Shown: positions 1-54,251, counted from the stretch's first letter. The stretch: DNA of 64,000 nt from an uncultured virus (IMG/VR IMGVR_UViG_3300042922_001471) (IMGVR_UViG_3300042922_001471); one strand, 5' to 3'. A program made the numbers and translations. Notes: a model not told the origin generated them from the letters alone.

Positions 1-830
1 TTGTAATTCATTCTCAGCATCAATTATAGCTTGTACGGTGTCAAGTCTTCCGTTTAAAGAAGTCTTTTCAGTGATTTGTGGAAGTACATTTACTAAAGTT
101 CTTGCACTATCTACATCAGCTTGAAGTTTACTACCTTCGGCTTTAACTACTGCATTTGTTGCATTTGCTATTGCTTGTTGTAATTCATTCTCAGCATCAA
201 TTATAGCTTGTACGGTGTCAAGTCTTCCGTTTAAAGAAGTCTTTTCAGTGATTTGTGGAAGTACATTTACTAAAGTTCTTGCACTATCTACATCAGCTTG
301 AAGTTTACTACCTTCGGCTTTAACTACTGCATTTGTTGCATTTGCTATCGCTTCTTGTAATTCATTCTCAGCGTCAATAATTGCTTGTACTGCATTTAAT
401 CTTTCAGTTAATGAAGTCTTTACTTCACTGTTTGGAAGTGCATTTACTAATACTCTTGCACTATCTACGTCAGCTTGTAATTTGCTACCTTCAGCTTTAA
501 CAACTGCATTTGTTGCATTTGTTATTGCTTCTTGTAATTCATTCTCAGCATTTATGATTGCTTGTACTATATCAAGTCTTTCATTTAATGAAGTTTTTAC
601 TTCACTGCTTGGTAATGCATTTACTAAAGTTCTTGCACTGTCTACGTCTGCTTGTAATTTACTACCTTCGGCTTTAACAACTGCATTTGTTGCATTTGTT
701 ATGGCTTGTTGTAAATCAGTTTCAGCATTTATGATTGCTTGTACTATATCAAGTCTTTCATTTAATGAAGTTTTTACTTCACTACTTGGTAATGCATTTA
801 CTAATAATCTTGCACTATCTACATTAATTT
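1..830 (-). repeat. 180-bp (60-aa) tandem repeats in the stalk of the giant protein
   Basis: 1-180 and 181-360 nearly identical; 361-540, 541-720 and 721-830 are diverged copies; unit encodes ATNAVVKAEGSKLQADVDSARTLVNxLP...L..RLD. Confidence 0.95.
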
Positions 831-3800
831 GAATCTTAGTTGTTTCTGCTTTAATAACAGCTTGGGTTGCCAATAGTATTTGATTTTCAAGTATTTCATC
901 TTTTTCAGGGCTATTAGGCAATTCATTAATTAAATCGTCTAAATCTTCAATAATATCTTCAAGTTCGTCTAATTCTTCTGGTGTAGGATTGTCTTTATCT
1001 AAGATTTCATCAATTCTGTCTAATATATCTTGAATTTTTTTATTAATTATTGCGATTTGAGTATCACCAATTCTTAATAGTAAATTTTGCTTAAATTTGG
1101 TATTAGGTAATGAATTAACTTTTATCTTAGCAATATCTAAATCCGACTGTTCTAATGATGTTTCAGCAACTTCAACTAACACGCCTGCATCTATAACATC
1201 TTGAAGTTTTTGTGCATTTGATTTCATTTGTGCTTTACTCTCAGCATCAACTATTGCTTCTATAATTGCATTAAGTTCATTTAACTTAATTTGTGCATCA
1301 ACATAGTTTTCTGCTATCAATAAATTAATTATTTCGATAAAACCATTTAACGCATCAATGTCTTGTGGTAATATTTCAATTCCATAATCTATGAATAATT
1401 GAACTGCGTCAAGTCTTTTATTTAAATCAGCTTTTTCTGGATTAACTAATTCATTTACAAGTATTCTTGCAACATCTACATAATCTTGTAATTTTGTAGC
1501 TTCTGCCTGTTCAACAGCTTCAGTTGCAAATGCTACTTCATTTAGATAATCTACTTTAGCTTGAACAATATTTAATCTATTTATTAATGAAGTTTTCGTA
1601 GGTTCAGAATCTGGCAATGCATTTACTAATACTCTTGCACTATCTAAATTGGTTTGTGATATATTATTCTCTGCATTAATTACTGCGTTTGTAGCTTCTG
1701 TTAATTTCTTTTGATAGCTTATATAATCCTGAACTACGTCAAGTCTGGCAAATAATGATGCCTTTTGAGAAATTGAATTATCAAGTGCATTTACCAATAC
1801 TCTTGCACTGTCAACATCAGCTTGAAGTTTACTTAATTCAGCTTTTTCTACTGCTAATGTTGCGTCTTTTACACAATTTATTAAATAGTCTACTGCATCA
1901 AGTCTTGTAGTTAAATCAACTTTTTCAGGATTTACTAAAACATTTACTAAATCTCTTGCACTATCAACATCTGTTTGAAGTATAGTAGTTTCTGCTTTTA
2001 CTACTGCTAAAGTTGCTATACGAACAGCTTCTTGATAATCAATATAAGTTTGAACAGTATTTAGTCTATTTGTTAATGAAATTTTTTCATTTCCAGTAGG
2101 CAATGCATTCACTAAAGTTCTTGCACTATCTATGTCAATTTGTGACTTACTATCTTCTGCTTTTACAACTGCAGTAGTTGCATTTAAAACTGCATCTACA
2201 TATGCTTGAAGAGTATTTAATCTATCTGTTAATGAATCTTTCATAGGTTCGCCATTGGATAATGCATTTACTAATATTCTTGCACTATCTATTAATGATT
2301 GTGTTTTGCTATTTTCTGCATTAATCACTGCATTTACAGCATTTATACATGCTTGAACTACGTCAAGTCTGACAGATAATGATGCTTTTTGAGAAATTAA
2401 ATTATCAAGTGCATTTACTAATATTCTTGCACTGTCAACATCTGCTTGAAGTTTACTTAATTCAGCTTTTTCTACTGCTAATGTTGCGTCTTTTACACAA
2501 TTTATTAGGTAGTCTACTGCATCAAGTCTTGTAGTTAAATCAGCTTTTTCAGGATTTACCAAAGCATTTACTAAGATTCTTGCGTCATCCACATCGATTT
2601 GAAGTATAGTTGTTTCAGCTTTTTCTACTGCTAAAGTTGCTATACGAACAGCTTCTTGATAATTAATATAAGCTTGAACTGTATCCAGTCTATTAGTTAA
2701 TGAAACTTTGTCACTTCCATTAGGTAATGCATTTACTAATACTCTTGCACTTTCCACATCTGCTTGGAATTTACTGCCTTCTGCTTTTGCAACTGATTCA
2801 GTTGCTGTATTTACAGCATCTACGTAAGCTTGAACAATATTTAATCTGTCAATTAATGAAGATTTTGTTGGTTCAGAATCTGGTAATTCATTTACCAAAA
2901 TCAATGCATTATCTACATTAACCTGTATTTTATTATTCTCTGATTGAATTACAGCATTTGTTGCTTCTGTTAATTGCTCTTGATAATCAATGTAATCTTG
3001 AATTATATCAAGTCTTTCAATCAATGAAAGTTTTACTGGAATTGAATTATTAAGTGCATTTACTAAAGTTCTTGCACTATCTACATCTGCTTGTAACTTA
3101 GTTGTTTCAGCTTTTAGCACTGCATTTGTAGCGTCTGATACGCAGTTTATTAAATAATCTACTGCATCAAGTCTTAAAGTTAATTCAGCTATTTCTGGAT
3201 TAATTAAGACATTTACTAAAACTCTCGCACTATCTACATCGCTTTGAAGTATAGTTGTTTCTGCTTTTATTACTGCCAAAGTTGCTATGCGAACTGCTTC
3301 TTGGTAATCAATATGAGCTTGAACAGTATTTAATCTATTTGTTAATGTAGTTTTATCATTTCCAGTAGGTAATGCATTTACTAAAGTTCTTGCACTATCT
3401 ACGTCAACTTGTAATTTACTGCCTTCTGCTTTAATAACTGCAGTAGTCGCTATTGTTACAGTATCTATATACTCTTGAACAGAATCTAATCGTTCATTTA
3501 AGGATTCTTTTGTTACCTCTGTATCTGGCAATGTATTTACCAATACTCTTGCATTATCTACTGTTGATTGTGTTTTGTTATTCTCTGCATTAATTACTGC
3601 ATTTACTGCATTTATATACGATTGAACTATATCAATTCTTTCATTTAAATCTGTTTTAATTAAATTATTTGACAATGAGTTTACAAGATTTCGTGCATAG
3701 TCAACGTCAGATTGAAGTTTAGTCAATTCTGCTTTTTCAACAGCTTTAATAGCAAGTTCATCTTTTAATCCGCTATCAGGTAGGTCTACTATTGTACCTG

Positions 3801-6800
3801 TCTTCATAGCTTCAAATATTGATGTTAATGACTGAGCTATATCTACAAACGCAACTTTAGGTTCTCCTGCTGGCAATGTTGTAATTTTATTATTAATAAT
3901 GTTGATTGTTGCTTCTGCTGATACCATGTTCCCATTAAGAATTTGCGTAATAAAATCATTACAGTTATTTACTAAACTATATAGAGTTTGTAAATAATCT
4001 TTATCTTCACCTGCTGGCAACAAATCTATCATCGCTTGAATATCTGTAATAGTTGAAAGTGGTAATTCATTTTTAATAAATAATGTTCTTAAATTACCTG
4101 TACTTACCAACAACATTGGCTGTTCAATACTTGTAGATACCATTTGAGTAGAGCCACTTACTCTATTTTTTAATTGTGCAATTTTTTCCATAAGAGCGTT
4201 CATTACATCAATATATCTTTGAACATTATTAAGTTGTTCTGCTAAATATTCTTTTTCTATACCATCTTGTAATGAGTTTACCAATACTCTTGCATTATTA
4301 ACATCCGATTGTGATTTTGAAACAACTGCTATCGCTACTGCATTGGTTGCTTCTACAATCACTTCATTATTTATTAAATCTTGAACAACATTTAATCTTT
4401 CAATTAATAAAGCTTTTTCTGTAACAGTATCTGACAATGCATTTACTAAAACTCTGGCACTATCTACATCAGCTTGTAATTTTGTTGTTTCTGCGGTAAT
4501 TACTGCATTAGTTGCATTTGTTACTGCTGTTTTAGAAATGACAATATTTAATGTAGCCATTTCACTTTCATTATTGGCGTTATCAATGGTTTTTGCATTA
4601 ATTATATATTCTCCATCTTCTAATGTAACTTGAACTGAATATACTAACCACTCACCATTATTGATTTGATACTGAGTTTCTTTTATTCCAATATCATCAA
4701 CGCCATGTATGATATTAAGAATATTTTCATCTACTTCTATTATCGGTGCTGTTGGAGCTATATTATCTGATACTTCCATTAAGAGATTTGGTATTATTAC
4801 TGGCGACAATTGCATTATAGTATTACCTATTCCTAATTGACCATAATTGTTATAACCCCATGTTTTTACTGTGCCATCTCCCAATATTACAAATGTCTGA
4901 TTATTCCCTGATGAAATTTGTATTACATTAGAAAGCCCTGGTATATCAACTGGCACGAGTTGGTCTACTTTATTTCCTATACCTAATTGTCCAAAAGCAT
5001 TATACCCCCAAGACTTTACAGTGCCATCTTTCATTAGTGCAAAAGATTGAAATGCCCCAGCCATTAATTCTTTTACATTGGTAATTCCTGATAATGTTAC
5101 TGGAGATACCTGCTGAGTTTTATTACCTAATCCTAATTCTCCAAAAGCATTTTGACCCCAAACTTTTATTGTTCCGTCTTCCAATAATGCTAATGTATAA
5201 TTACGACCTGCAACAATTTGTTTTAAATTTATTAGATTTGGTATTGTTACTGGTGATAGCTGATTAACAGCATTACCAATACCCAATTGCCCATTAAGAT
5301 TGTACCCCCAAGCCTTCACTGTTCCATCCGACAACAATGCAAATACATGACAATCTCCTACGACTATACGATTTACATTTGATAAACCTGGTATTATTAC
5401 TGGTAGAGTTTGTTGAGTTGTATTTCCAATACCTAATTGTCCATAATCATTACGACCCCATGCTCTTACTGTTCCATTTTCTAATAATGCAAATGTAGAA
5501 CCATTACTTGCAGTAATTTGTTTCACATTTATAAGTCCAGGGATTATTACAGGCGACATTTGTCCTGTAGTATGACCAATACCCAATTGCCCATATCCAT
5601 TACTTCCCCATGCTTTTACAGTTCCATCTTCTATTAATGCAAATGAATTAGAAGCTTTTGCTGAAACCTGTTTTACATTTGTAAGCCCTGGTATTGTTAC
5701 TGGTGATAATTGTTGAAGTTTATTGCCAATACCTACTTCCCCAGAACTATTTTGCCCCCAAGCTTTCAATGTTCCATCTCCCATTAATGCTAATGCATGA
5801 GAGTCCCCTACTACTATTTGAGGATTTGTGGTGAAAGGTGCTTTATTAATATTATTAATTTCTATTGAACTAACTACACTCCAATTACCACTTTTGTCTT
5901 TACACTTTGCGTAAACATTATTATTATTAGTGACCAAAACAGGAGCAATATAATCATACCAAAGACCTGTTTCTCCCACCTTAAATTGTTTTACAAAAGC
6001 ATCTTCTGGATAAGCAATTGTAACTCTTATATTTTGATTAGTCTCTGCTGTTGTACTACTTGTTAATATAGGAGCATTTGGTGCATTTTTATCAACAATT
6101 AATTGAAAATCGCTTATTAATACTGGAGAAATTTGATTTATTATATTTCCAATACCTAATTGACCATATTCATTTCTACCCCAAGCCATCACTGTTTCAT
6201 CTGCCATAATAGCAAAAGCACTTGAATATCCTGTTGAGATATCCACAACGCTTGAAAGATTTGAAACAACTACTGGCGAAGTTTGATTTGTATTATTTCC
6301 AATACCTAATTGTCCAGAAACATTAGCTCCCCATGCTTTAACATTTCCATCTTCCATTAATGCAAAAACAGAAGACGAAGCTGTTTTCAACTTCTTTACA
6401 TTTGTAAGACCTGGAATTTCAACTGGTGTTAATTTTGTAGTAGTATTTCCAATACCTAATTGTCCTGAATTATTAGCACCCCATGATTTTACTGTTCCAT
6501 CATTCATTAGAGCAATTGTATGAGCATTTCCAGCTACAATTTGTTTTACGCTATCAATTGATATAGATATAGGGATTCCTTGATTAATAATATTTCCATT
6601 ACCTAATGCCCCATATTCATTGTAACCCCATCCTTTAATCGTTCCATCTACCATTATAGCAAAAGCGTGATATTCACCAGCTATGATTTGTTTAACATTA
6701 GTTAGCCCTGGTATGGTTATTGGAGTGTTTCGTTGTTGAAAAAGAGAAGTGCCAACACCTAATTGTCCATAACCATTAAAACCCCATGATTTAACAGTTC

Positions 6801-7257
6801 CATCTTCCATTAATGCTAAAGAAAAATTGCGACCTGCTGAAATTTCTTTCACATTAGTAAGTCCTTGTATAACTGTTGGAGAATATTGATTTGTAAAGTT
6901 TCCAATACCTAATTGCCCATTACTATTGTATCCCCAGGACTTTACTGTTCCATCTTCCAACAAGGCTATTGAAAAATTGCTACCTGCTGAAATTTGCTTT
7001 ACATTATTAAGCCCTGATATTGTTACTGGTGAAGTTTGTTGTATAGTATTGCCGATACCTACTTCTCCAAAATTATTTCTACCCCAAGCTTTTACTGTTC
7101 CATCTTCCATTAATGCAAGAGTATGATATTCCCCTTCTACTATCTGAGGATTTACAACCAATGCATTAGATTCAATAGGGTTAATCAATCCTACTGAAAT
7201 ATACATTATTATTAATGTAATAATTAAAATTGTTTGTTTAATTTTATTTTTTTTCAT
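1..7257 (-). CDS. Giant secreted protein (>2419 aa, 3' end outside window): signal peptide, 7 RCC1/BLIP-II repeats, Ig-like spacer, 7 more RCC1 repeats, Ig-like domain, long helical repeat stalk
   Basis: ATG at 7257 after GAAGGGAG SD; N-terminus MKKNKIKQTILIITLIIMYISVGLI; ~150-bp units encoding ALMEDGTVKAWGxNxxGQLGIGN at ~7140-6120 and ~5820-4790; same frame is coding at position 1. Absent from the ORF track, consistent with no stop inside the window. Confidence 0.92.
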   Translation of the reverse strand, partial: MKKNKIKQTILIITLIIMYISVGLINPIESNALVVNPQIVEGEYHTLALMEDGTVKAWGRNNFGEVGIGNTIQQTSPVTISGLNNVKQISAGSNFSIALLEDGTVKSWGYNSNGQLGIGNFTNQYSPTVIQGLTNVKEISAGRNFSLALMEDGTVKSWGFNGYGQLGVGTSLFQQRNTPITIPGLTNVKQIIAGEYHAFAIMVDGTIKGWGYNEYGALGNGNIINQGIPISISIDSVKQIVAGNAHTIALMNDGTVKSWGANNSGQLGIGNTTTKLTPVEIPGLTNVKKLKTASSSVFALMEDGNVKAWGANVSGQLGIGNNTNQTSPVVVSNLSSVVDISTGYSSAFAIMADETVMAWGRNEYGQLGIGNIINQISPVLISDFQLIVDKNAPNAPILTSSTTAETNQNIRVTIAYPEDAFVKQFKVGETGLWYDYIAPVLVTNNNNVYAKCKDKSGNWSVVSSIEINNINKAPFTTNPQIVVGDSHALALMGDGTLKAWGQNSSGEVGIGNKLQQLSPVTIPGLTNVKQVSAKASNSFALIEDGTVKAWGSNGYGQLGIGHTTGQMSPVIIPGLINVKQITASNGSTFALLENGTVRAWGRNDYGQLGIGNTTQQTLPVIIPGLSNVNRIVVGDCHVFALLSDGTVKAWGYNLNGQLGIGNAVNQLSPVTIPNLINLKQIVAGRNYTLALLEDGTIKVWGQNAFGELGLGNKTQQVSPVTLSGITNVKELMAGAFQSFALMKDGTVKSWGYNAFGQLGIGNKVDQLVPVDIPGLSNVIQISSGNNQTFVILGDGTVKTWGYNNYGQLGIGNTIMQLSPVIIPNLLMEVSDNIAPTAPIIEVDENILNIIHGVDDIGIKETQYQINNGEWLVYSVQVTLEDGEYIINAKTIDNANNESEMATLNIVISKTAVTNATNAVITAETTKLQADVDSARVLVNALSDTVTEKALLIERLNVVQDLINNEVIVEATNAVAIAVVSKSQSDVNNARVLVNSLQDGIEKEYLAEQLNNVQRYIDVMNALMEKIAQLKNRVSGSTQMVSTSIEQPMLLVSTGNLRTLFIKNELPLSTITDIQAMIDLLPAGEDKDYLQTLYSLVNNCNDFITQILNGNMVSAEATINIINNKITTLPAGEPKVAFVDIAQSLTSIFEAMKTGTIVDLPDSGLKDELAIKAVEKAELTKLQSDVDYARNLVNSLSNNLIKTDLNERIDIVQSYINAVNAVINAENNKTQSTVDNARVLVNTLPDTEVTKESLNERLDSVQEYIDTVTIATTAVIKAEGSKLQVDVDSARTLVNALPTGNDKTTLTNRLNTVQAHIDYQEAVRIATLAVIKAETTILQSDVDSARVLVNVLINPEIAELTLRLDAVDYLINCVSDATNAVLKAETTKLQADVDSARTLVNALNNSIPVKLSLIERLDIIQDYIDYQEQLTEATNAVIQSENNKIQVNVDNALILVNELPDSEPTKSSLIDRLNIVQAYVDAVNTATESVAKAEGSKFQADVESARVLVNALPNGSDKVSLTNRLDTVQAYINYQEAVRIATLAVEKAETTILQIDVDDARILVNALVNPEKADLTTRLDAVDYLINCVKDATLAVEKAELSKLQADVDSARILVNALDNLISQKASLSVRLDVVQACINAVNAVINAENSKTQSLIDSARILVNALSNGEPMKDSLTDRLNTLQAYVDAVLNATTAVVKAEDSKSQIDIDSARTLVNALPTGNEKISLTNRLNTVQTYIDYQEAVRIATLAVVKAETTILQTDVDSARDLVNVLVNPEKVDLTTRLDAVDYLINCVKDATLAVEKAELSKLQADVDSARVLVNALDNSISQKASLFARLDVVQDYISYQKKLTEATNAVINAENNISQTNLDSARVLVNALPDSEPTKTSLINRLNIVQAKVDYLNEVAFATEAVEQAEATKLQDYVDVARILVNELVNPEKADLNKRLDAVQLFIDYGIEILPQDIDALNGFIEIINLLIAENYVDAQIKLNELNAIIEAIVDAESKAQMKSNAQKLQDVIDAGVLVEVAETSLEQSDLDIAKIKVNSLPNTKFKQNLLLRIGDTQIAIINKKIQDILDRIDEILDKDNPTPEELDELEDIIEDLDDLINELPNSPEKDEILENQILLATQAVIKAETTKIQINVDSARLLVNALPSSEVKTSLNERLDIVQAIINAETDLQQAITNATNAVVKAEGSKLQADVDSARTLVNALPSSEVKTSLNERLDIVQAIINAENELQEAITNATNAVVKAEGSKLQADVDSARVLVNALPNSEVKTSLTERLNAVQAIIDAENELQEAIANATNAVVKAEGSKLQADVDSARTLVNVLPQITEKTSLNGRLDTVQAIIDAENELQQAIANATNAVVKAEGSKLQADVDSARTLVNVLPQITEKTSLNGRLDTVQAIIDAENELQ

Positions 7258-19771: not shown

Positions 19772-20269
19772 TTATTTATTATCTTTGATTTTCTTTTGAA
19801 TTATAAGTGTTCTATAATCTTCAAACCCATACTTGTCCATATATTCTTCTAATGCACTTGCCATCATGTCGATTGCATTAAAGATACTCCATTCTTGACA
19901 GAAACATTGCCACCTTTTCCACACCTTTTTATAAACTCTTGCACTGGTTGTTGTTATAACATCATCACTTCTTTTCGTAACTTCTGGTTGAAACTGCTTG
20001 TGTTTCATATAATACTCATAGCTGTTAGCAAGGGTTTTTAAACGACTAATTTCTTCTTCAGTAAGTTTTACATCCTTAGTAAAAATATCTTTATCTTTTG
20101 CAAACCCAAGTTCCATTAGCATTTTCATTGCTGTTGGATATGTAAAATTAAGTGTTTCTGAACGAAATTCTTTAATAGTTCTGCCACATTCTTTTAATTC
20201 AAGAAGTCTTTGATTTACTAAATCAACCTTCTCTTTTTCGCTTAACTGTTTAAATTCGGATAAATTCAT
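19772..20269 (-). CDS. putative DNA-binding protein (C-terminal ribbon-helix-helix-like)
   Basis: TTSARVYKKVWKRW...DMMASALEEYMDKY pattern. Confidence 0.55.
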   Translation of the reverse strand: MNLSEFKQLSEKEKVDLVNQRLLELKECGRTIKEFRSETLNFTYPTAMKMLMELGFAKDKDIFTKDVKLTEEEISRLKTLANSYEYYMKHKQFQPEVTKRSDDVITTTSARVYKKVWKRWQCFCQEWSIFNAIDMMASALEEYMDKYGFEDYRTLIIQKKIKDNK

Positions 20270-20625
20270 AACGAAATCTCCTTCTATATAAAATAATTTT
20301 GTACTTTTTTATTTTATACTACAGTTTGTGTATTGTCAAAATATTTTACTATATAACTCTATAGTTTTATATTCGTCATTTTTATCACTCCTGTAGTTAA
20401 TATATAAATTACCTTATATATTACTGCAGTTTTTATTAATATGATTATATAAATAATTAAATTAAAGTTATAATAGAGTTATGATTATAACTTTAGTAAT
20501 TTTAACTATTAATTTATTTTATTTTATAATACATGTATTGTTATTTTATATTGTAATCAAAAATGCCATATAATTTAAAAAGTTAATAAAATAGGAATAT
20601 ACAATATATATATTTGGAGGATAAA

Positions 20626-38308: not shown

Positions 38309-39007
38309 TTAATTATTGTAATAATAGTTAAGATTATTCATATTACCTTCATATATAATATCTTTATACTTAAAGATTGTATCCAAAGCTACTTCTATCT
38401 CATTTGGACCTCTGAAGTATCCCCTATCAAACTTAGCATAACCTTTTTTTATTTCGTCAATATTAACAATATCAGGATGCTCATAACCAACAGACATATT
38501 AGTTAAAAAACAATCCGTAATAGCTCCCTCATGTAAATCTTCTGGAAAATGTCCAGTGAAATATTTACATTCTATATTATCTCCATTAAAATATGGGATA
38601 TAAGTATACTCTTTAATATTATCTTTTTTTAGCTTTTTTCGAATTTCATCATAATCATAACCTTCATCAGATAAATTTTTATAAATCTTACGAAACTCTT
38701 TGCTGTCACCACGCAGATTACCAACATCGATTCCTATATATTTATAACCATTTGAAATAAAATGTTCTGACTGATATCCAAATGCACATCCTATGTCTGT
38801 CACACTTTTGATTCCGTTTCTTGTTTTTAAATCCTGTAATATCATAAAATAATCACCATCAAAACACAAACAATCGGAGCAAGGAGCATATTCATCATTA
38901 TACTTCTTGAATTTTTCCTTAAATCCTTTAATCTTAAACAAAAATGCTCCTTCCATATCAAATTCATGTTGAATTCTTTTTCTATTTAAAATCTTTACTA
39001 TTGCCAT
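38309..39007 (-). CDS. class I SAM-dependent methyltransferase-like protein
   Basis: VTDIGCAFG...YIGIDV; start re-called at MAIVKIL after AGGTGGAG. Confidence 0.6.
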   Translation of the reverse strand: MAIVKILNRKRIQHEFDMEGAFLFKIKGFKEKFKKYNDEYAPCSDCLCFDGDYFMILQDLKTRNGIKSVTDIGCAFGYQSEHFISNGYKYIGIDVGNLRGDSKEFRKIYKNLSDEGYDYDEIRKKLKKDNIKEYTYIPYFNGDNIECKYFTGHFPEDLHEGAITDCFLTNMSVGYEHPDIVNIDEIKKGYAKFDRGYFRGPNEIEVALDTIFKYKDIIYEGNMNNLNYYYNN

Positions 39008-39038
39008 AATGCTCCACCTTCTAATTTTAGAATTTAAA

Positions 39039-39329
39039 TTAAAATATATTTCCAAACTGATATGAGCCACTTTTATCGTCACATTGCCACATAAACTCAG
39101 CCAAATAATCTTCAACTGGTTTTGAGCCTCTTGGTAATTTTTCCACCTGTGTTGGCAAGGAAAAATCAATACATCTTAATTTCCCATTTATATTAGCTCC
39201 ACAAAGTTGCATATTTCCTTCAAGCTTTCTCTCAATTGCCCATAACTTATCATAAGATTTACCGTCTTTTCCTATAAAAGTTTCGCACTCTCTATCAGAT
39301 ACCTTTTTTGTTATATAAATCGTAGCCAT
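39039..39329 (-). CDS. hypothetical protein
   Basis: 96 aa, GGGAGG SD. Confidence 0.75.
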   Translation of the reverse strand: MATIYITKKVSDRECETFIGKDGKSYDKLWAIERKLEGNMQLCGANINGKLRCIDFSLPTQVEKLPRGSKPVEDYLAEFMWQCDDKSGSYQFGNIF

Positions 39330-42884: not shown

Positions 42885-43613
42885 ATGACTAAAGAAACTA
42901 ACCATAAGTTTTTTTTGCATTTTTTGACAGAATGGAAAACTTCTCTTATTTCCTCTCTGTTTGGATTAATTATTGGTATTATAATTAGTAAAATACATTT
43001 AATAATAAATGAACAAAATCTAAATTTATTATGCTTTATAATAATATTTTTATTGACCTTATTGGGATACACTAATGGAGTTATTATCAATCATTTAGTT
43101 AAATATATATATATTGATACTATTACTAACCTAAATAATCGAAATTATTTTAATATGATGTTTTCACAAGTTATAAAAAAAACTAAAAATAAAAAGTGCA
43201 ATTGTTCAATAGCAATTATTGATATTGATAACTTTAAAATAATAAATGATACCTTTGGACATGCAGAAGGTGACAATGTATTAAAAATGGTATCAACTAT
43301 TATTAAAAATAATGTTCGAAAAAATGATGTAGTTGTAAGATATGGTGGGGATGAATTTGCCATAATATTTTTCGACATATCTTCTGAAGGTGCTTATCAG
43401 ATAGCCGAAAGAGTACGACAAGCTGTTAATGTTAACGAATTTTTCATAAATAAAACAAAAATAAATCTTACTATAAGTGTTGGAATTGTTTCCACAGAGC
43501 AAACTTCGGACATGCCAAATATAATGCTTCTGGCAGATAAATGTCTTTATACTGCTAAAAAGTCTAAAAACATGGTTTATGAATTAAACGTAAAACTTGC
43601 AACTGTAAATTAA
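42885..43613 (+). CDS. membrane-anchored diguanylate cyclase (GGDEF)
   Basis: 2 TM helices; DIDNFKIINDTFGH, RKND I-site, RYGGDEF. Confidence 0.95.
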   Translation: MTKETNHKFFLHFLTEWKTSLISSLFGLIIGIIISKIHLIINEQNLNLLCFIIIFLLTLLGYTNGVIINHLVKYIYIDTITNLNNRNYFNMMFSQVIKKTKNKKCNCSIAIIDIDNFKIINDTFGHAEGDNVLKMVSTIIKNNVRKNDVVVRYGGDEFAIIFFDISSEGAYQIAERVRQAVNVNEFFINKTKINLTISVGIVSTEQTSDMPNIMLLADKCLYTAKKSKNMVYELNVKLATVN

Positions 43614-43618
43614 AAAAA

Positions 43619-43655
43619 AATAGGTTACTTGCAATTATTACAAGTAACCTATTTT
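43619..43655. terminator. bidirectional intrinsic terminator
   Basis: AATAGGTTACTTG/CAAGTAACCTATT stem between convergent genes. Confidence 0.8.
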
Positions 43656-44324
43656 TTATTTTAAAATATTCAAATTTGCTTTATCCATAAATTCTTTTAA
43701 ACTACATCTTTTACTACTTAGAGTATCTATAACTTCTCCTCTGGTATAGTTGTAAGTTCTTCGTGATTCAGCTCTATCTCCTGTACCAACTTGACTACTT
43801 CTTGATTTGTTGAGCTTCTCAATCCTTTTATTTTCTTCAAATTTTTGAATTTTACTATAAAGTATTTCTATTGCAACATCTTTATTTTGATGTTGAGACC
43901 TCTCATTTTCGCAACATACAACAATTCCAGTCGGAATATGTGTAATTCTTACTGCTGAATCTGTTGTATTTCGGTGCTGTCCACCTGCTCCAGAACCTCT
44001 ATAGTTATCTACTCTTATATCATTTCTATTTATTTCTATTTTTTTATTTTGCTGTACTTGTAAAATTACAATAGAAACAGTTGAAGTATGAAGTTTCCCT
44101 TTTGAAACTCTTTGCACTTTATGAATACCTTCTTCTGAAATAAAAGGGTTTATAAATTCAGTCTTTCCTTCAATCATAATTACCTTTGTCTTTCCATCAG
44201 AAACAAATTCTACTTTCATATTATTTTTTCTTGCATATTTTAAATATACACTAAGGAGTTCATTTGCAAAATCCATTGCTTCCTCTCCCCCTGTACATGC
44301 TCTAACTTCTAAATATATTTTCAT
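43656..44324 (-). CDS. truncated RF1-like peptide chain release factor (no domain 1, GGQ intact)
   Basis: LEVRACTGGEEA, EEGIHKVQRV, HTST, GSGAGGQHRNTTDSAVRITHIPTG, ERSQHQNK, GDRAESRRTYN. Confidence 0.92.
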   Translation of the reverse strand: MKIYLEVRACTGGEEAMDFANELLSVYLKYARKNNMKVEFVSDGKTKVIMIEGKTEFINPFISEEGIHKVQRVSKGKLHTSTVSIVILQVQQNKKIEINRNDIRVDNYRGSGAGGQHRNTTDSAVRITHIPTGIVVCCENERSQHQNKDVAIEILYSKIQKFEENKRIEKLNKSRSSQVGTGDRAESRRTYNYTRGEVIDTLSSKRCSLKEFMDKANLNILK

Positions 44325-44472
44325 TATTTACCTCCTCTAAATTTTAAAATTTTATTTTTAATAAAAGAGAAAGTACCTAATGCATATTTTGTAATTCGTA
44401 TATAAAAATTCAAATTTTCAAACAATCACTCCCTTCAATTATTATTATATTATATTAAAATTTTTTTGTCAA
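44322..44472 (-). promoter_or_regulatory. promoter, mini-uORF and SD/AUG-sequestering hairpin of the RF-like gene
   Basis: TTGACA(44472-67)-17-TATAAT(44449-44); GGAG-7nt-TTG AAA ATT TGA (44421-44410); arm 44382-44366 pairs with 44338-44322. Confidence 0.7.
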
Positions 44473-44767
44473 TTTTATTTTACTTTAAATATGTTTAAAG
44501 ATTCTGCTAAAGAACTTTTTAATTTTATTTTTTTAAAAAAGATTTCAAAATAAACTTAACTTTAATATATATTAGCCGATAAATTAACTGTTAAAGAGCT
44601 GTGAATAAAGAAATTCTAATAAGTTTTGTATGAATTTGCACTATTATATTTTATTTTATCTAAAACAGGATTATTATATAATAGTAAATTTTTATTTACT
44701 TTTTGCATGAAATATTATATAATTGTTTTAGACTTAATTTAAATCTATAAGAAAGGAAAAAGCACAA

Positions 44768-45589
44768 ATGAAAAATAAAAAAATCGTATTTACTGTAATA
44801 ATACTAATAATACTTGTTTCTCTTTTAGCTATCTATCTATTGAAGGATTCAGCGAATAAAGACAAAGAAATAAACTCAGCACCTATAGAAGAACAATTGC
44901 CTAATAAGGAAATTTCAAACGAAGATAAACCCCAAGAATTAATTAATTTAGAATCAAAATTTGAAAAAATAAATAATTTAGAATACACAATTTTACGAAA
45001 TGAAATAGTTGATTCTAAAGAAGCTAACGGTAAGAACTTATTGTTTGATATACTAATTTCTAATGAAATGACTGATGACCAAATAATTACCATTGGCAAG
45101 GAAATAACTAAATTAGCGATAGAAAATAACAACTTAGTTGAAGTGAATTTTAATGTATTCACATCTGAAGATAGCTTTAAAATAACATTAGAAGATAATT
45201 ATAATTTCCAACCTATAAATGGTTTAGAAGCAAGTTTTCTTTTATCACGTCAAAATGAATCAAATATCGTTAATTTTAAAAAATATATGTCATACAATAT
45301 TGACACCCCTTATGCTGACTTAGATTATGAATTTATCAATGCTATAAAATCGGAAGATGGGAAACATTTAGAAACTTCTATGTTAATCACTTCAAGTGGG
45401 ACAGATGCTGATATTTGGAATATGTCTAATGTATTTAAAGATATAATAAAAGACATTAATGTAGGAGCTGAGACGCTAAATATAAATGTATTTTTAAATT
45501 TAGCTGATTATCAAGCACATAATGTTGCTTATAAATACACAAACATATCGCCTGATTTTTTAACAAAACAAACATTATTCACTTATTAA
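44768..45589 (+). CDS. membrane-anchored exported protein
   Basis: N-terminal TM helix; two loosely repeated extracellular modules. Confidence 0.8.
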   Translation: MKNKKIVFTVIILIILVSLLAIYLLKDSANKDKEINSAPIEEQLPNKEISNEDKPQELINLESKFEKINNLEYTILRNEIVDSKEANGKNLLFDILISNEMTDDQIITIGKEITKLAIENNNLVEVNFNVFTSEDSFKITLEDNYNFQPINGLEASFLLSRQNESNIVNFKKYMSYNIDTPYADLDYEFINAIKSEDGKHLETSMLITSSGTDADIWNMSNVFKDIIKDINVGAETLNINVFLNLADYQAHNVAYKYTNISPDFLTKQTLFTY

Positions 45590-51404: not shown

Positions 51405-54251
51405 TTATTTAGCTACTACACTATTTAACCTATTTATTAGTTCTGTTTTTTCAGAACTGTCAGCTAATTTATTAACTGCATCTGTAGCTAATTTAATATA
51501 AGTAGCATGTTTATATTTTTCTGCTTTTTCAACTAATATAGTTGCATTATTTAATGCAATTTCATCTTCAGTTGGATATATTTCTGGTCTTAAGTCTTTT
51601 AAAATTTGCTGTAATTCTGTTTTAATTGCTGAATCAACTAATGCATTTACTAAAGTATTTGCTTTATCAAAATAATACTTTGAGTTATATTCTACTGCTT
51701 TATTAACATAGTAATTAGCATTTACAACATCTTTATTATCTATAGCACTATTGTATTCATCTTTTAAAAAGTTTGCTCTATCTAATAAATTAGCTTTGCC
51801 ATCAATTGAATCTGAAAGACTTCTAACAAGTAATAATGCATATTCGATATTTGATTTAGTTCTATTAGCTTCTGCTTTTACAACTGCCTCTGTAGCTTGT
51901 AATAATACTATGTTATCATAGTCCATGGCTGTCAATCTATTGTTTAAAGCCTTTTTAGCTAAACTTGGGACTAATGCATCAATCGAAGTTTTTGCAGTTG
52001 TTACATATGGTTCTTTTTTATATGCTTCGGCTATTTTAAGTTTATTAGTAGCATCTTTTAACGCATTATCTATTGGGTTTAATTTATTTTCTAAAGTTAT
52101 CTTTATTTCTTCATGTTTAAGAATATTGATAGATACTCTTGCAATATTTACATCTTCTTGAAGTTTTGTTTGAACAGCTTTATTAGTATTATTAGTTGCA
52201 TCTTCTTCTTGAATTTGGTTTTGAATACCATCCAGTTGCTCTATTAATTGTTCTTTTTCAGCACTGTTTGGAAGTTGATTTATCAAATCCCATGAAAATT
52301 CTAAATCTTCTGGTAATTTATTTTCTTCAACATTTTTAATAGCTTCAACTACATTTACTATTATTTGTTGTTCTTCAGTTCTAACAATAAGTAAATCTTT
52401 TTCAGCACTATTTGGAAGGTTATTTACTAAATCTAAAGCATAATCTAAATCAACTTGCAAATCAGTTGACTCAGCATGTTCTATTGCTGTTGTTGCTTTA
52501 ACTAAATTAACAATTTTTTGCTGTTCTTCAGCTCTGTTAACAAGCAAATCTTTTTCAGCACTATTTGGAAGTTTATTTATTAATTCTAAAACAAAATCTA
52601 AATCGTTTTGTAAATCAGTTGATTCAGCATGTTCGATTGCTGTAGTTACTTCCTCTACAGTTACATTATAAACAGTTATTGACACAATCAAGCTTTCATT
52701 TCCTGCTAAATCTGTTGTTTTAGAATTTATTATATAATTACCATTTTCTAAAGTAACAACAGAATTATAAGGTATCCAATTACCATTATTAATTTGATAT
52801 AATGTTTCTTTTATTCCAGATTCATTATCAGTTCCAGGAAGAATTACTAAATTATTTTCTTCTACTGATAAAACTGGGATTGTTGGAACAATCTTATCAA
52901 TATTGGTTATTGTAACTGTTTCAGTTGTCATATTCTCATAATTATCTATAGCTATGAAATTAAAAGTTCCGTTTTCTGTAAAAGTGTGACTTGTCGCATT
53001 TAATGTTCCCTTATTTGTAAAAGCGGTCACAGTTATATCTTGATTTGTAGGAATTGTAATATACTCATTTATTGTAACAACTGGTGGTCTATTAGGTTCA
53101 ATTGCTACAACTGGAAATACTTGTGAAATTGTATTGCCAATACCTAATTGACCAGAACTGTTATTTCCCCAAGCATTTAACGTGCCATCTTCCATTAATG
53201 CTAATGTATAAGAATGTCCTAATGCTATTTGTTTTATATTAGTTAAGTTTGGTACGGATACTGGAGCTTTTTGGTTAGGTGAAACCCCTATTCCTAATTC
53301 TCCATCAGCATTACGCCCCCAAGCCTGTATTGTTTTATCTTCCATTAATGCAATAGTATGATAATATCCTGCTGAAACCTGTTCAACATTATAAATATTT
53401 GGTATTGTTATTGGAGATGTTTGGATTGCTGAAGTACTAACTCCTAATTGCCCATATCCATTACTTCCCCAAACATTTATTGTACCATCTTCCATTAATG
53501 CTACTGAATGAGCATATTTAGATGCTATTTGTTTTACATTGTTTAGATTTGGAACAATTACTGGTGATTTTTTTGATGTTCTATTTCCTATTCCTAATTG
53601 TCCATGTTCATTTACCCCCCATGCCATTACTGTTCCATCTTTCATCAATGCTAATGTATGATAACTCCCCATTGCAATTTGTTTTACATTATTAAGATTT
53701 GATATAGTTACTGGGGATACTTTATCCGTTACAGTACCTATGCCCAATTGACCATCCTCATTCCAACCCCAAGCTTTTACTGTCCCATCTTCCATTATTG
53801 CAAATGAATGAGAACCAGAACAAGCTATTTCTTTCACATTTGCAAGTCCTTGAATTATTACTGGTGAACTTTTATTAATTTTATTACCTATCCCTAATTG
53901 TCCATGGGCATTATACCCCCAAGCCATTACTGTTCCATCTTCAAGCAAAGCTAACGAATGAGAAGCCCCAGCTTCAATTTGTTTTACATTATTAAGTTCT
54001 GGTATTATTATTGGTAATTCCTGGTCTATCGTATTTCCAATACCTAATTGTCCATAATTATTTTGTCCCCATGCCATTACTGTTCCGTCTTCCATTAATA
54101 CCATTGAGTATGAATTACCAGCTACCACTTGTTTTATATTCACCCATGATGCATAACTTTGGATTGGCATTTCCAGTCCATAACTTGATGATACTAATAT
54201 CGCTAAAAGCAATATAAATATCATAAGTTGCTTAATTCTTTCTCTCTTCAT
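51405..54251 (-). CDS. secreted RCC1/BLIP-II repeat protein with Ig-like and helical repeats
   Basis: signal peptide; 7 x ALMEDGTVxAWGxNxxGQLGIG; helical ATxAVxKAE repeats; paralog of the 1-7257 gene. Confidence 0.92.
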   Translation of the reverse strand: MKRERIKQLMIFILLLAILVSSSYGLEMPIQSYASWVNIKQVVAGNSYSMVLMEDGTVMAWGQNNYGQLGIGNTIDQELPIIIPELNNVKQIEAGASHSLALLEDGTVMAWGYNAHGQLGIGNKINKSSPVIIQGLANVKEIACSGSHSFAIMEDGTVKAWGWNEDGQLGIGTVTDKVSPVTISNLNNVKQIAMGSYHTLALMKDGTVMAWGVNEHGQLGIGNRTSKKSPVIVPNLNNVKQIASKYAHSVALMEDGTINVWGSNGYGQLGVSTSAIQTSPITIPNIYNVEQVSAGYYHTIALMEDKTIQAWGRNADGELGIGVSPNQKAPVSVPNLTNIKQIALGHSYTLALMEDGTLNAWGNNSSGQLGIGNTISQVFPVVAIEPNRPPVVTINEYITIPTNQDITVTAFTNKGTLNATSHTFTENGTFNFIAIDNYENMTTETVTITNIDKIVPTIPVLSVEENNLVILPGTDNESGIKETLYQINNGNWIPYNSVVTLENGNYIINSKTTDLAGNESLIVSITVYNVTVEEVTTAIEHAESTDLQNDLDFVLELINKLPNSAEKDLLVNRAEEQQKIVNLVKATTAIEHAESTDLQVDLDYALDLVNNLPNSAEKDLLIVRTEEQQIIVNVVEAIKNVEENKLPEDLEFSWDLINQLPNSAEKEQLIEQLDGIQNQIQEEDATNNTNKAVQTKLQEDVNIARVSINILKHEEIKITLENKLNPIDNALKDATNKLKIAEAYKKEPYVTTAKTSIDALVPSLAKKALNNRLTAMDYDNIVLLQATEAVVKAEANRTKSNIEYALLLVRSLSDSIDGKANLLDRANFLKDEYNSAIDNKDVVNANYYVNKAVEYNSKYYFDKANTLVNALVDSAIKTELQQILKDLRPEIYPTEDEIALNNATILVEKAEKYKHATYIKLATDAVNKLADSSEKTELINRLNSVVAK

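Follow-up and report, generated by a model that had tools for sequence, protein, structure and literature searches.

In the 64,000-nucleotide (nt) stretch of uncultured-virus DNA IMGVR_UViG_3300042922_001471, analyzed over its whole length and called the window below, the gene for a 222-residue protein derived from the release factor RF1 is preceded by a leader that holds three elements in succession. These are a Shine-Dalgarno (SD) sequence, a three-codon upstream open reading frame (uORF, or mini-ORF) that ends in UGA, and a hairpin that masks the SD and the start codon of the gene itself. The layout suggests a protein made when ribosomes fail to finish normally. The reading that we tentatively favor, at somewhat less than an even chance, is that the leader acts as a ribosome-operated translational attenuator whose input would be how ribosomes leave the UGA, by readthrough, restart or recycling. 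The results partly support the view that the leader is a new form of uORF/hairpin translational control acting on an undescribed RF1-derived factor.

The gene and its leader lie on the minus strand. The -35 hexamer TTGACA (44467-44472) and the -10 hexamer TATAAT (44444-44449) are separated by 17 nt, and TTGACA-N17-TATAAT occurs a single time in the 64-kb window with both strands counted; the one 12/12 promoter match between 40000 and 48000 is the promoter of the RF-like gene. From the position of this promoter, the transcription start is predicted at about 44437-44436. The first SD (SD1, GAAGGGAG, 44429-44436) follows the -10 hexamer by 7 nt and stands at the predicted 5' end of the mRNA, with a probability of being unpaired, P(unpaired), of 0.87. 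Seven nt (UGAUUGU) 3' of SD1 begins the mini-ORF UUG AAA AUU UGA (44410-44421). SD1 and its 7-nt spacing agree with the SDs of real genes in the window, and we infer that the mini-ORF would be translated. An earlier note on this DNA had described the perfect promoter, an SD at almost the first nt of the transcript and the three-codon uORF 7 nt behind it, and all three were found where it placed them. By itself the mini-ORF is unexceptional, as 13 of the 80 GGAG-plus-start sites in the window open ORFs of at most five codons, mostly within genes. As a separate observation, further SD-led mini-ORFs of 6 codons (20362-20379, minus strand) and 3 codons (39176-39187, minus strand) sit just 5' of the ORFs 19772-20269 and 38309-39169.

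The hairpin consists of a 5' arm, or anti-SD (CAUUAGGUACUUUCUCU, 44366-44382), an A/U-rich loop with a small inner stem (44339-44365), and a 3' arm (AGAGGAGGUAAAUAAUG, 44322-44338) that comprises the SD of the gene (SD2, 44338-44331) and its start codon (44324-44322). The arms pair at 15 of 17 positions, including two G-U pairs, and thereby cover both the SD and the AUG. The 138-nt leader folds with a minimum free energy (MFE) of -24.2 kcal/mol (z-score -3.05; 1 of 200 shuffles as good), and this fold yields exactly the SD- and AUG-burying stem drawn in the earlier note, down to its coordinates and its pairing. The SD2-masking hairpin alone reaches -17.3 kcal/mol (z -5.62; 0 of 200 shuffles as good), and the partition function gives SD2 a P(unpaired) of 0.01. 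A second, weak hairpin holding the mini-ORF (44391-44429) is not significant (-5.5 kcal/mol, z -1.33, 19 of 200 shuffles as good). The strong hairpin was rejected as a terminator since no T-run lies 3' of it, and the leader was rejected as a repeat since it is unique in the window. A search of 43000-45500 with Rfam 15 gave seven matches with E-values up to 10, all far below the gathering score and all to eukaryotic miRNA or snoRNA families, none of which overlaps 44322-44472. Among the contigs from three DNA sequencing runs, we found identical contigs and unrelated A+T-rich fragments, and neither leader variants nor transcript ends.

The 5' arm begins 27 nt from the UGA; the earlier note had placed the uORF and the stem in the right order and put the distance at about 28 nt. 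A scripted frame walk recovered each of the three routes by which it let a ribosome escape the UGA. Readthrough leads to the UAG at 44379-44377, which lies in the 5' arm in frame with the mini-ORF; the +1 frame leads to the UAA at 44360-44358, in the hairpin loop; and the -1 frame is open as far as the UAA at 44326-44324, which overlaps the AUG of the gene as UAAUG. Its list left out two UUG codons. One of them (44411-44413, read 44413-44411) overlaps the UGA as UUUGA and may serve as a restart codon in the -1 frame. The other (44425-44423) opens a 33-codon ORF in the -1 frame (44324-44425) that runs through the hairpin to the UAA at the gene AUG, and is probably little used because it lies only 3 nt 3' of SD1. 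In constrained folds, SD2 stays paired (P(unpaired) 0.01) when the mini-ORF region is masked to mimic a ribosome sitting there; with the 5' arm masked instead, to mimic a ribosome that has reached the in-frame UAG, the P(unpaired) of SD2 climbs from 0.01 to 0.79. The geometry on which the earlier note relied, with a ribosome at the UGA short of the stem and one at the UAG freeing SD2, is therefore reproduced by folding.

On the attenuator reading, ribosomes would load at the strong SD1 at the very 5' end and translate the three-codon mini-ORF to its UGA. Terminating ribosomes would leave there without contact with the hairpin downstream, so that SD2 and the AUG would remain locked and the gene off. 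Ribosomes that continue beyond the UGA would hit the 5' arm and melt the hairpin, and the gene would be translated. Two routes could carry them there, namely readthrough to the in-frame UAG in the 5' arm, and restart at the overlapping UUG in the -1 frame, which is open to the UAAUG junction. The output of the gene would then report on the efficiency of termination or recycling at the UGA. We infer both the switching itself and the nature of its input.

Comparison was possible with one relative, the locus L001 on a 51-kb metagenome contig. Its protein is 65% identical to that of the window; nothing else in its 8 kb matches the window, and there is no synteny. In L001, a promoter (TTGACT-18-TATAAT, 3639-3668) precedes an SD (GGAGGA, 3686-3691) about 11 nt from the predicted 5' end, which is followed after 7 nt by the mini-ORF AUG GUG UUA UGA (3699-3710). 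Behind it lies a hairpin (3723-3775) of 14 perfect pairs with a 7-pair outer stem (-14.1 kcal/mol, z -4.35, equaled by none of 200 shuffles). In either locus, the frame that continues past the mini-ORF UGA closes with a UAG at the foot of the hairpin on its 5' side, and the UGA itself is overlapped by a start codon (UUG in the window, as UUUGA; AUG in L001, as UUAUGA). The restart frame enters the 5' arm in both; it traverses the whole hairpin to UAAUG in the window and ends at a UAG inside the 5' arm in L001. The 5' arm opens with AUUAGGUA in L001 and the window alike. Within the first nine arm positions, one C-G pair of the window appears as U-A in L001, and the two G/A mismatches of the window are G-U pairs in L001; as covariation across two sequences, this is only a hint. 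The encoded peptides differ (MKI in the window, MVL in L001).

Since an SD-led mini-ORF and a significant hairpin are present in L001 too, the mini-ORF and the strong hairpin, as predicted in both sequences, are real and travel with the gene. The recurrence bears on the simplest account of the mini-ORF, that it is a chance by-product and that the functional parts are just the promoter and the SD-masking hairpin, which might for instance give low-level or temperature-dependent expression. Short ORFs after GGAG are indeed common in this A+T-rich DNA, as the 13 of 80 sites illustrate, and stops are frequent in all frames. In 200,000 mononucleotide shuffles of the L001 leader, an SD-led three-codon ORF ending in TGA arose in 0.11% (P = 0.0011) and any SD-led ORF of at most five codons in 2.4%, so that an independent recurrence in L001 has a probability of about 0.001 for the exact design and 0.024 for the wider class. 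We therefore consider a chance origin highly unlikely. The conservation that the earlier note had proposed to look for among relatives thus extends in L001 to the SD-led three codons with UGA and to the significant hairpin. It does not extend to the burial of the SD, as SD2 is free in L001; burial is predicted in the window only and is not conserved in this two-locus comparison.

Several observations weigh against a leader that senses events at the UGA. The comparative test comprises two loci only. In L001, the hairpin ends immediately 5' of the GGAG, and SD2 is predicted to be unpaired, so opening of the hairpin has no obvious consequence there because SD2 is already predicted free. The whole L001 leader is no more structured than its shuffles (z -0.50). 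The 8-mer ATTAGGTA occurs 14 times in the window, so that the sharing of this 8-mer may be due to chance. L001 has nothing that corresponds to the 33-codon ORF of the -1 frame, and chance alone would give an NUG over any UGA whose preceding base is other than C. Restart at an NUG over the UGA can also let ribosomes into the -1 frame without any failure of termination. We found no evident shift-prone or leaky context at the mini-ORF UGA, which is followed by A in both loci. Neither AUU-UGA in the window nor UUA-UGA in L001 resembles the shift site of prfB. Finally, the use of UGA in both of the two loci is weak evidence of UGA sensing because 6 of the 45 window genes also end in TGA (33 end in TAA and 6 in TAG).

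The lack of conserved SD burial also speaks for a leader that senses nothing. The STAB-SD and ermC-type 5' stabilizers of Bacillus are sites at which a bound ribosome protects the transcript from 5'-to-3' decay. SD1 and the mini-ORF could similarly be a 5' ribosome-binding stabilizer, combined with a constitutive damping hairpin that holds down translation of a potentially harmful release factor. Such a role would suit the position of SD1, which falls on the predicted +1/+2 in the window and, in L001, about 11 nt from where the transcript is predicted to begin, and the fact that normal translation of the mini-ORF cannot reach the hairpin. It would also suit the strong gene SDs and the Clostridia-like host suggested by NrdD (about 60% identity). 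For a stabilizer, neither ORF length nor stop codon would have to be fixed, yet exactly three codons, UGA and a 7-nt SD spacing are found at both loci, and their hairpins are far stronger than expected by chance. We regard this explanation as unlikely on balance.

In anatomy, the nearest known leader is that of vmlR of B. subtilis. The parts of the window leader (SD, three-codon uORF and SD-sequestering stem-loop) occur there in the same order, as described in PMC9226507, and a three-codon uORF (MIN) with the stop UAA lies in the first stem-loop. According to the same text, the vmlR leader also contains an intrinsic terminator and a pause hairpin, along with an antiterminator fold that is set off by antibiotic stalling. 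The claim of the earlier note that the architecture was undescribed is thus too strong, given that vmlR has the SD, the three-codon uORF and the SD-sequestering hairpin, albeit with a terminator and antibiotic stalling (PMC9226507). Further points of likeness are a single-stranded SD, a uORF placed within the first stem-loop, a setting of the Firmicute type and a main gene whose product acts on the ribosome. The leader could accordingly be a stall sensor of the vmlR or lmo0919 type, in which a ribosome halted on the uORF, whether by a peptidyl-transferase inhibitor or by some other block to early elongation or termination, would refold the leader and free the SD of a rescue-type factor. The differing mini-ORF peptides (MKI and MVL) would be compatible with this, as the vmlR uORF peptide is interchangeable according to that account (PMC9226507). 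A vmlR-like refolding switch is, however, not supported thermodynamically, because SD2 stays paired when the mini-ORF region is masked (P(unpaired) 0.01) and the freed strand has no good alternative partner, its best duplex reaching -2.5 kcal/mol. Moreover, no terminator-like site was found within the leader (44437-44325), and the hairpin that holds the uORF is not significant (z -1.33). The window leader therefore differs from vmlR, as described in the available text, in having no terminator and, by the thermodynamic test of simulated stalling, no alternative fold, and both loci use UGA as the stop. The SD-sequestering hairpin that is a feature of vmlR is matched in the window, where P(unpaired) is 0.01, and not in L001, where the GGAG is unpaired. 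Stall sensing of this type appears improbable.

Folding of nascent transcripts that end 5' of the 3' arm (44366-44436) gives an MFE structure of -11.1 kcal/mol in which SD1 pairs with the anti-SD, which thus has two candidate SD partners. This raises the possibility of a kinetic three-way switch among SD1, anti-SD and SD2 that reads the availability of 30S subunits. The anti-SD CUUUCUCU would pair first with SD1 unless SD1 is occupied by a ribosome, and occupied SD1 would leave SD2 trapped. The SD1/anti-SD duplex has an energy of -7.1 kcal/mol. The full-length RNA, however, strongly prefers anti-SD:SD2 (-24.2 kcal/mol, against -14.1 kcal/mol with SD2 forced open), and L001 has no anti-SD-like run complementary to its SD1. 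Such a switch is very improbable in our estimate, and the attenuator governed by events at the UGA remains the reading that we prefer.

The protein under this control is encoded at 43656-44324, and an intrinsic terminator-like hairpin (43615-43657, minus strand) of 20 pairs followed by a T-run stands directly 3' of its stop codon. PCRF and RF-1 domains were detected in it. The match to RF1 models is limited to their positions 105-335, and alignment with canonical RF1 places its start at about RF1 position 110, so that the first ~110 residues (domain 1) are missing and only domains 2-4 are present. Together, these domain hits, the partial model match and the alignment bear out the description of the gene in the earlier note as a truncated release-factor homolog. 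A search of the window with full-length RF1 (tblastn) returned residues 111-318 only, with no domain-1 remnant upstream of the gene, and a split or decayed full-length RF1 was rejected on this ground. Compared with canonical RF1, the protein further lacks a 7-residue insert and the C-terminal ~17 residues. It scores below the cut-offs of the prfA, prfB, prfH and arfB models, with 220 bits against 423.25 for TIGR00019 and 223.1 against 400 for NF001859 (both canonical RF1). With NF006718 (ArfB) it reaches 38.2 bits against a cut-off of 100 and, unlike a protein made of a GGQ domain and a basic C-terminal tail only, it keeps the decoding superdomain. The GGQ motif, invariant in the family, is kept, as are the GGxE of helix alpha5 and the Q...HT of the decoding region. 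The PxT reader is lost: in 12 of 13 family members aligned, a deletion of four residues turns RVPxTESxGR into RVSKGK; the exception is P0009, which has SKTSSKNK at this loop. The AlphaFold model (pLDDT 83) resembles free RF1 and RF2 structures, with TMq 0.81 to 1rq0 and 0.84 to 2ihr. Because domain 1 is dispensable for release and PxT is the RF1 "anticodon", as stated in the available text of PMC1586002, the protein probably still works as a peptidyl-tRNA hydrolase but reads codons differently or not at all.

The SKGK family, named here for this loop, is small, numbering about 11 proteins, and undescribed. Among 7999 scored proteins, 11 of 218-226 amino acids with 46-100% identity ranked higher than any full-length RF1. 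A search of 1.84 billion representatives yielded just six short proteins with scores above the RF1 plateau, and two of these six keep P-K-T. The family profile gives 234 bits to RF1 structures, compared with 84 bits to PrfH structures. A literature search, mostly at the level of abstracts and with supplements outside it, came upon no account of SKGK proteins as a family, nor of any release-factor gene gated by a uORF. A DNA pattern for the family motif VQRxSKxKLHTST had no match in genome contigs, none in viral contigs and one in metagenome contigs, which is L001; a pattern for the SKT variant had no match in viral contigs. Searches for related loci with the single protein gave no family locus, and with the family alignment none of the best 80 of 91 confirmed matches (from 167 candidates) exceeded 45% identity. 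Against phages and plasmids, tblastn returned only canonical RF1 or other families, bar one partial plasmid match at 60-80% identity. When the query was cut to the N-terminal 91 residues, which are specific to the family, it found nothing above 60% identity in plasmids. Megablast with the 16 kb around the gene gave no match in phages and plasmids. A pattern for GGQHRNTTDSA was tried for leader comparison and set aside, as its matches were for the most part Geobacterales genes of ArfB size and members of another phage RF family.

These searches also brought up a separate, large group of phage-borne RF1-like genes without domain 1 (IMG/VR loci L005, L006, L008, L009 and L012), in which PxT is kept as PPT (QRVPPTEKxGR). 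These genes are split about 100-200 nt 5' of the GGQ-bearing ORF, with prfB-like shift sites at the split: CTT-TGA-C in L006 and L012, CTT-TAG-C in L008 and L009, and CTT-TAA-C in L005. Many more split copies were seen. This group would mean +1 frameshift control on all three stops in RF1-type phage genes. Two further representatives annotated as RF1 (P0247 and P0249, 477-481 amino acids) contain an internal exact duplication of about 100-150 residues, and these duplications are most likely artefacts of assembly or gene calling, not fused forms.

In its logic, the leader resembles the control of prfB, the gene of RF2, which is autoregulated by a +1 frameshift at CUU-UGA. As in prfB, a gene of the release-factor family has an SD element near a regulatory stop, and its synthesis would rise with inefficient termination at UGA. 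Unlike prfB, the ORF of the window is uninterrupted over 222 codons, and the UGA lies in a separate uORF about 85 nt 5' of the gene start codon. There is no CUU-UGA-C site, the effector is a hairpin that masks the SD and AUG, and the protein is without a known UGA-reading motif. In the translational attenuation of cat, cmlA and ermC, a hairpin hides the SD of the gene, and a ribosome in the leader ORF melts it. There the leader ORF reaches the hairpin, whereas the mini-ORF of the window stops 27 nt short, so that only escaping ribosomes could act. Frameshifting in RF2 genes is mentioned in the available text of PMC1586002.

The domain-1-less release-factor homolog PrfH (RFH) is described in the available texts of PMC1586002, PMC9304027 and bioRxiv 10.1101/2025.01.09.632186. 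On the strength of these accounts, the window protein resembles PrfH in being a class-I release-factor homolog that lacks domain 1, keeps GGQ, has a changed decoding region and occurs sporadically, and a role in ribosome rescue is plausible. It differs from PrfH in its score with TIGR03072 (93.8 bits against a cut-off of 166.65), with the match limited to the GGQ domain (residues 93-193). The gene is moreover monocistronic with no RtcB nearby, and L001 shares no other gene with the window. No RtcB was found among the 27 window ORFs scanned with Pfam, which include all nine ORFs of at least 350 amino acids. Phages that have recoded a stop codon encode RF1 or RF2, according to the available text of bioRxiv 10.1101/2021.08.26.457843, and the window resembles them in carrying a release-factor gene on a very large, probably mobile or viral element. 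Unlike those phages, it uses all three stops and shows no sign of recoding, and its protein lacks PxT and domain 1. An alternative genetic code was rejected, as the ORFs gained with TGA as a sense codon are antisense artefacts with many in-frame TGAs, and reading TGA or TAG as sense gains artefacts only.

The window lies on a contig of 534,699 bp that is rich in orphan genes, has 21-33% G+C in 2-kb segments and may be a megaplasmid, a giant phage or a small genome. The RF-like gene is monocistronic, with its own promoter and the 20-pair terminator, and its upstream neighbor is divergent. On the plus strand, a small gene for a membrane-anchored GGDEF diguanylate cyclase (42885-43613) converges on it, and the two genes share a bidirectional terminator region near 43615-43657. 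Named proteins of the window include NrdD/NrdG, a Clp-like ATPase, a subtilase, Ig-domain proteins and giant RCC1-repeat proteins. The closest named relatives of NrdD are from Clostridia, at about 60% identity, which points to a Clostridia-like host. The genes of the window have strong SDs. Many of the larger ORFs belong to no Pfam or PHROG family (with Pfam, 12 of 27 scanned had none), and no tRNA was found in the 64 kb. Two giant RCC1-repeat proteins are encoded on the minus strand at 1-7257 (more than 2419 amino acids, running off the window) and 51405-54251 (948 amino acids). Toward the C-terminus, each weakly matches GA-like and Cry1Aa domain-IV families, and ATTAGGTA recurs within their genes.

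Cells typically make a back-up translation factor only once the main pathway has failed, as with RF2 through its frameshift and with ArfA and BrfA through tmRNA. A more specific hypothesis, to which we assign a low probability, is that SKGK proteins are codon-relaxed or codon-independent release factors on giant Clostridia-associated elements, and that the leader is a sensor of failed UGA termination shut off by feedback from the factor. The factor would be translated only if release at the UGA-ended three-codon ORF is not clean, and its activity there would close the leader. Compared with prfB, this would be a prfB-style loop rebuilt from a uORF and an SD-masking hairpin, with no frameshift. 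A release-factor-like protein without PxT and domain 1 also raises the question of what it recognizes in the A site; this might be any stop codon, or else a site that is empty or damaged. If true, the gating of an RF-like gene by a UGA-ended mini-ORF would be a second, independent coupling of release-factor synthesis to the quality of termination or recycling.

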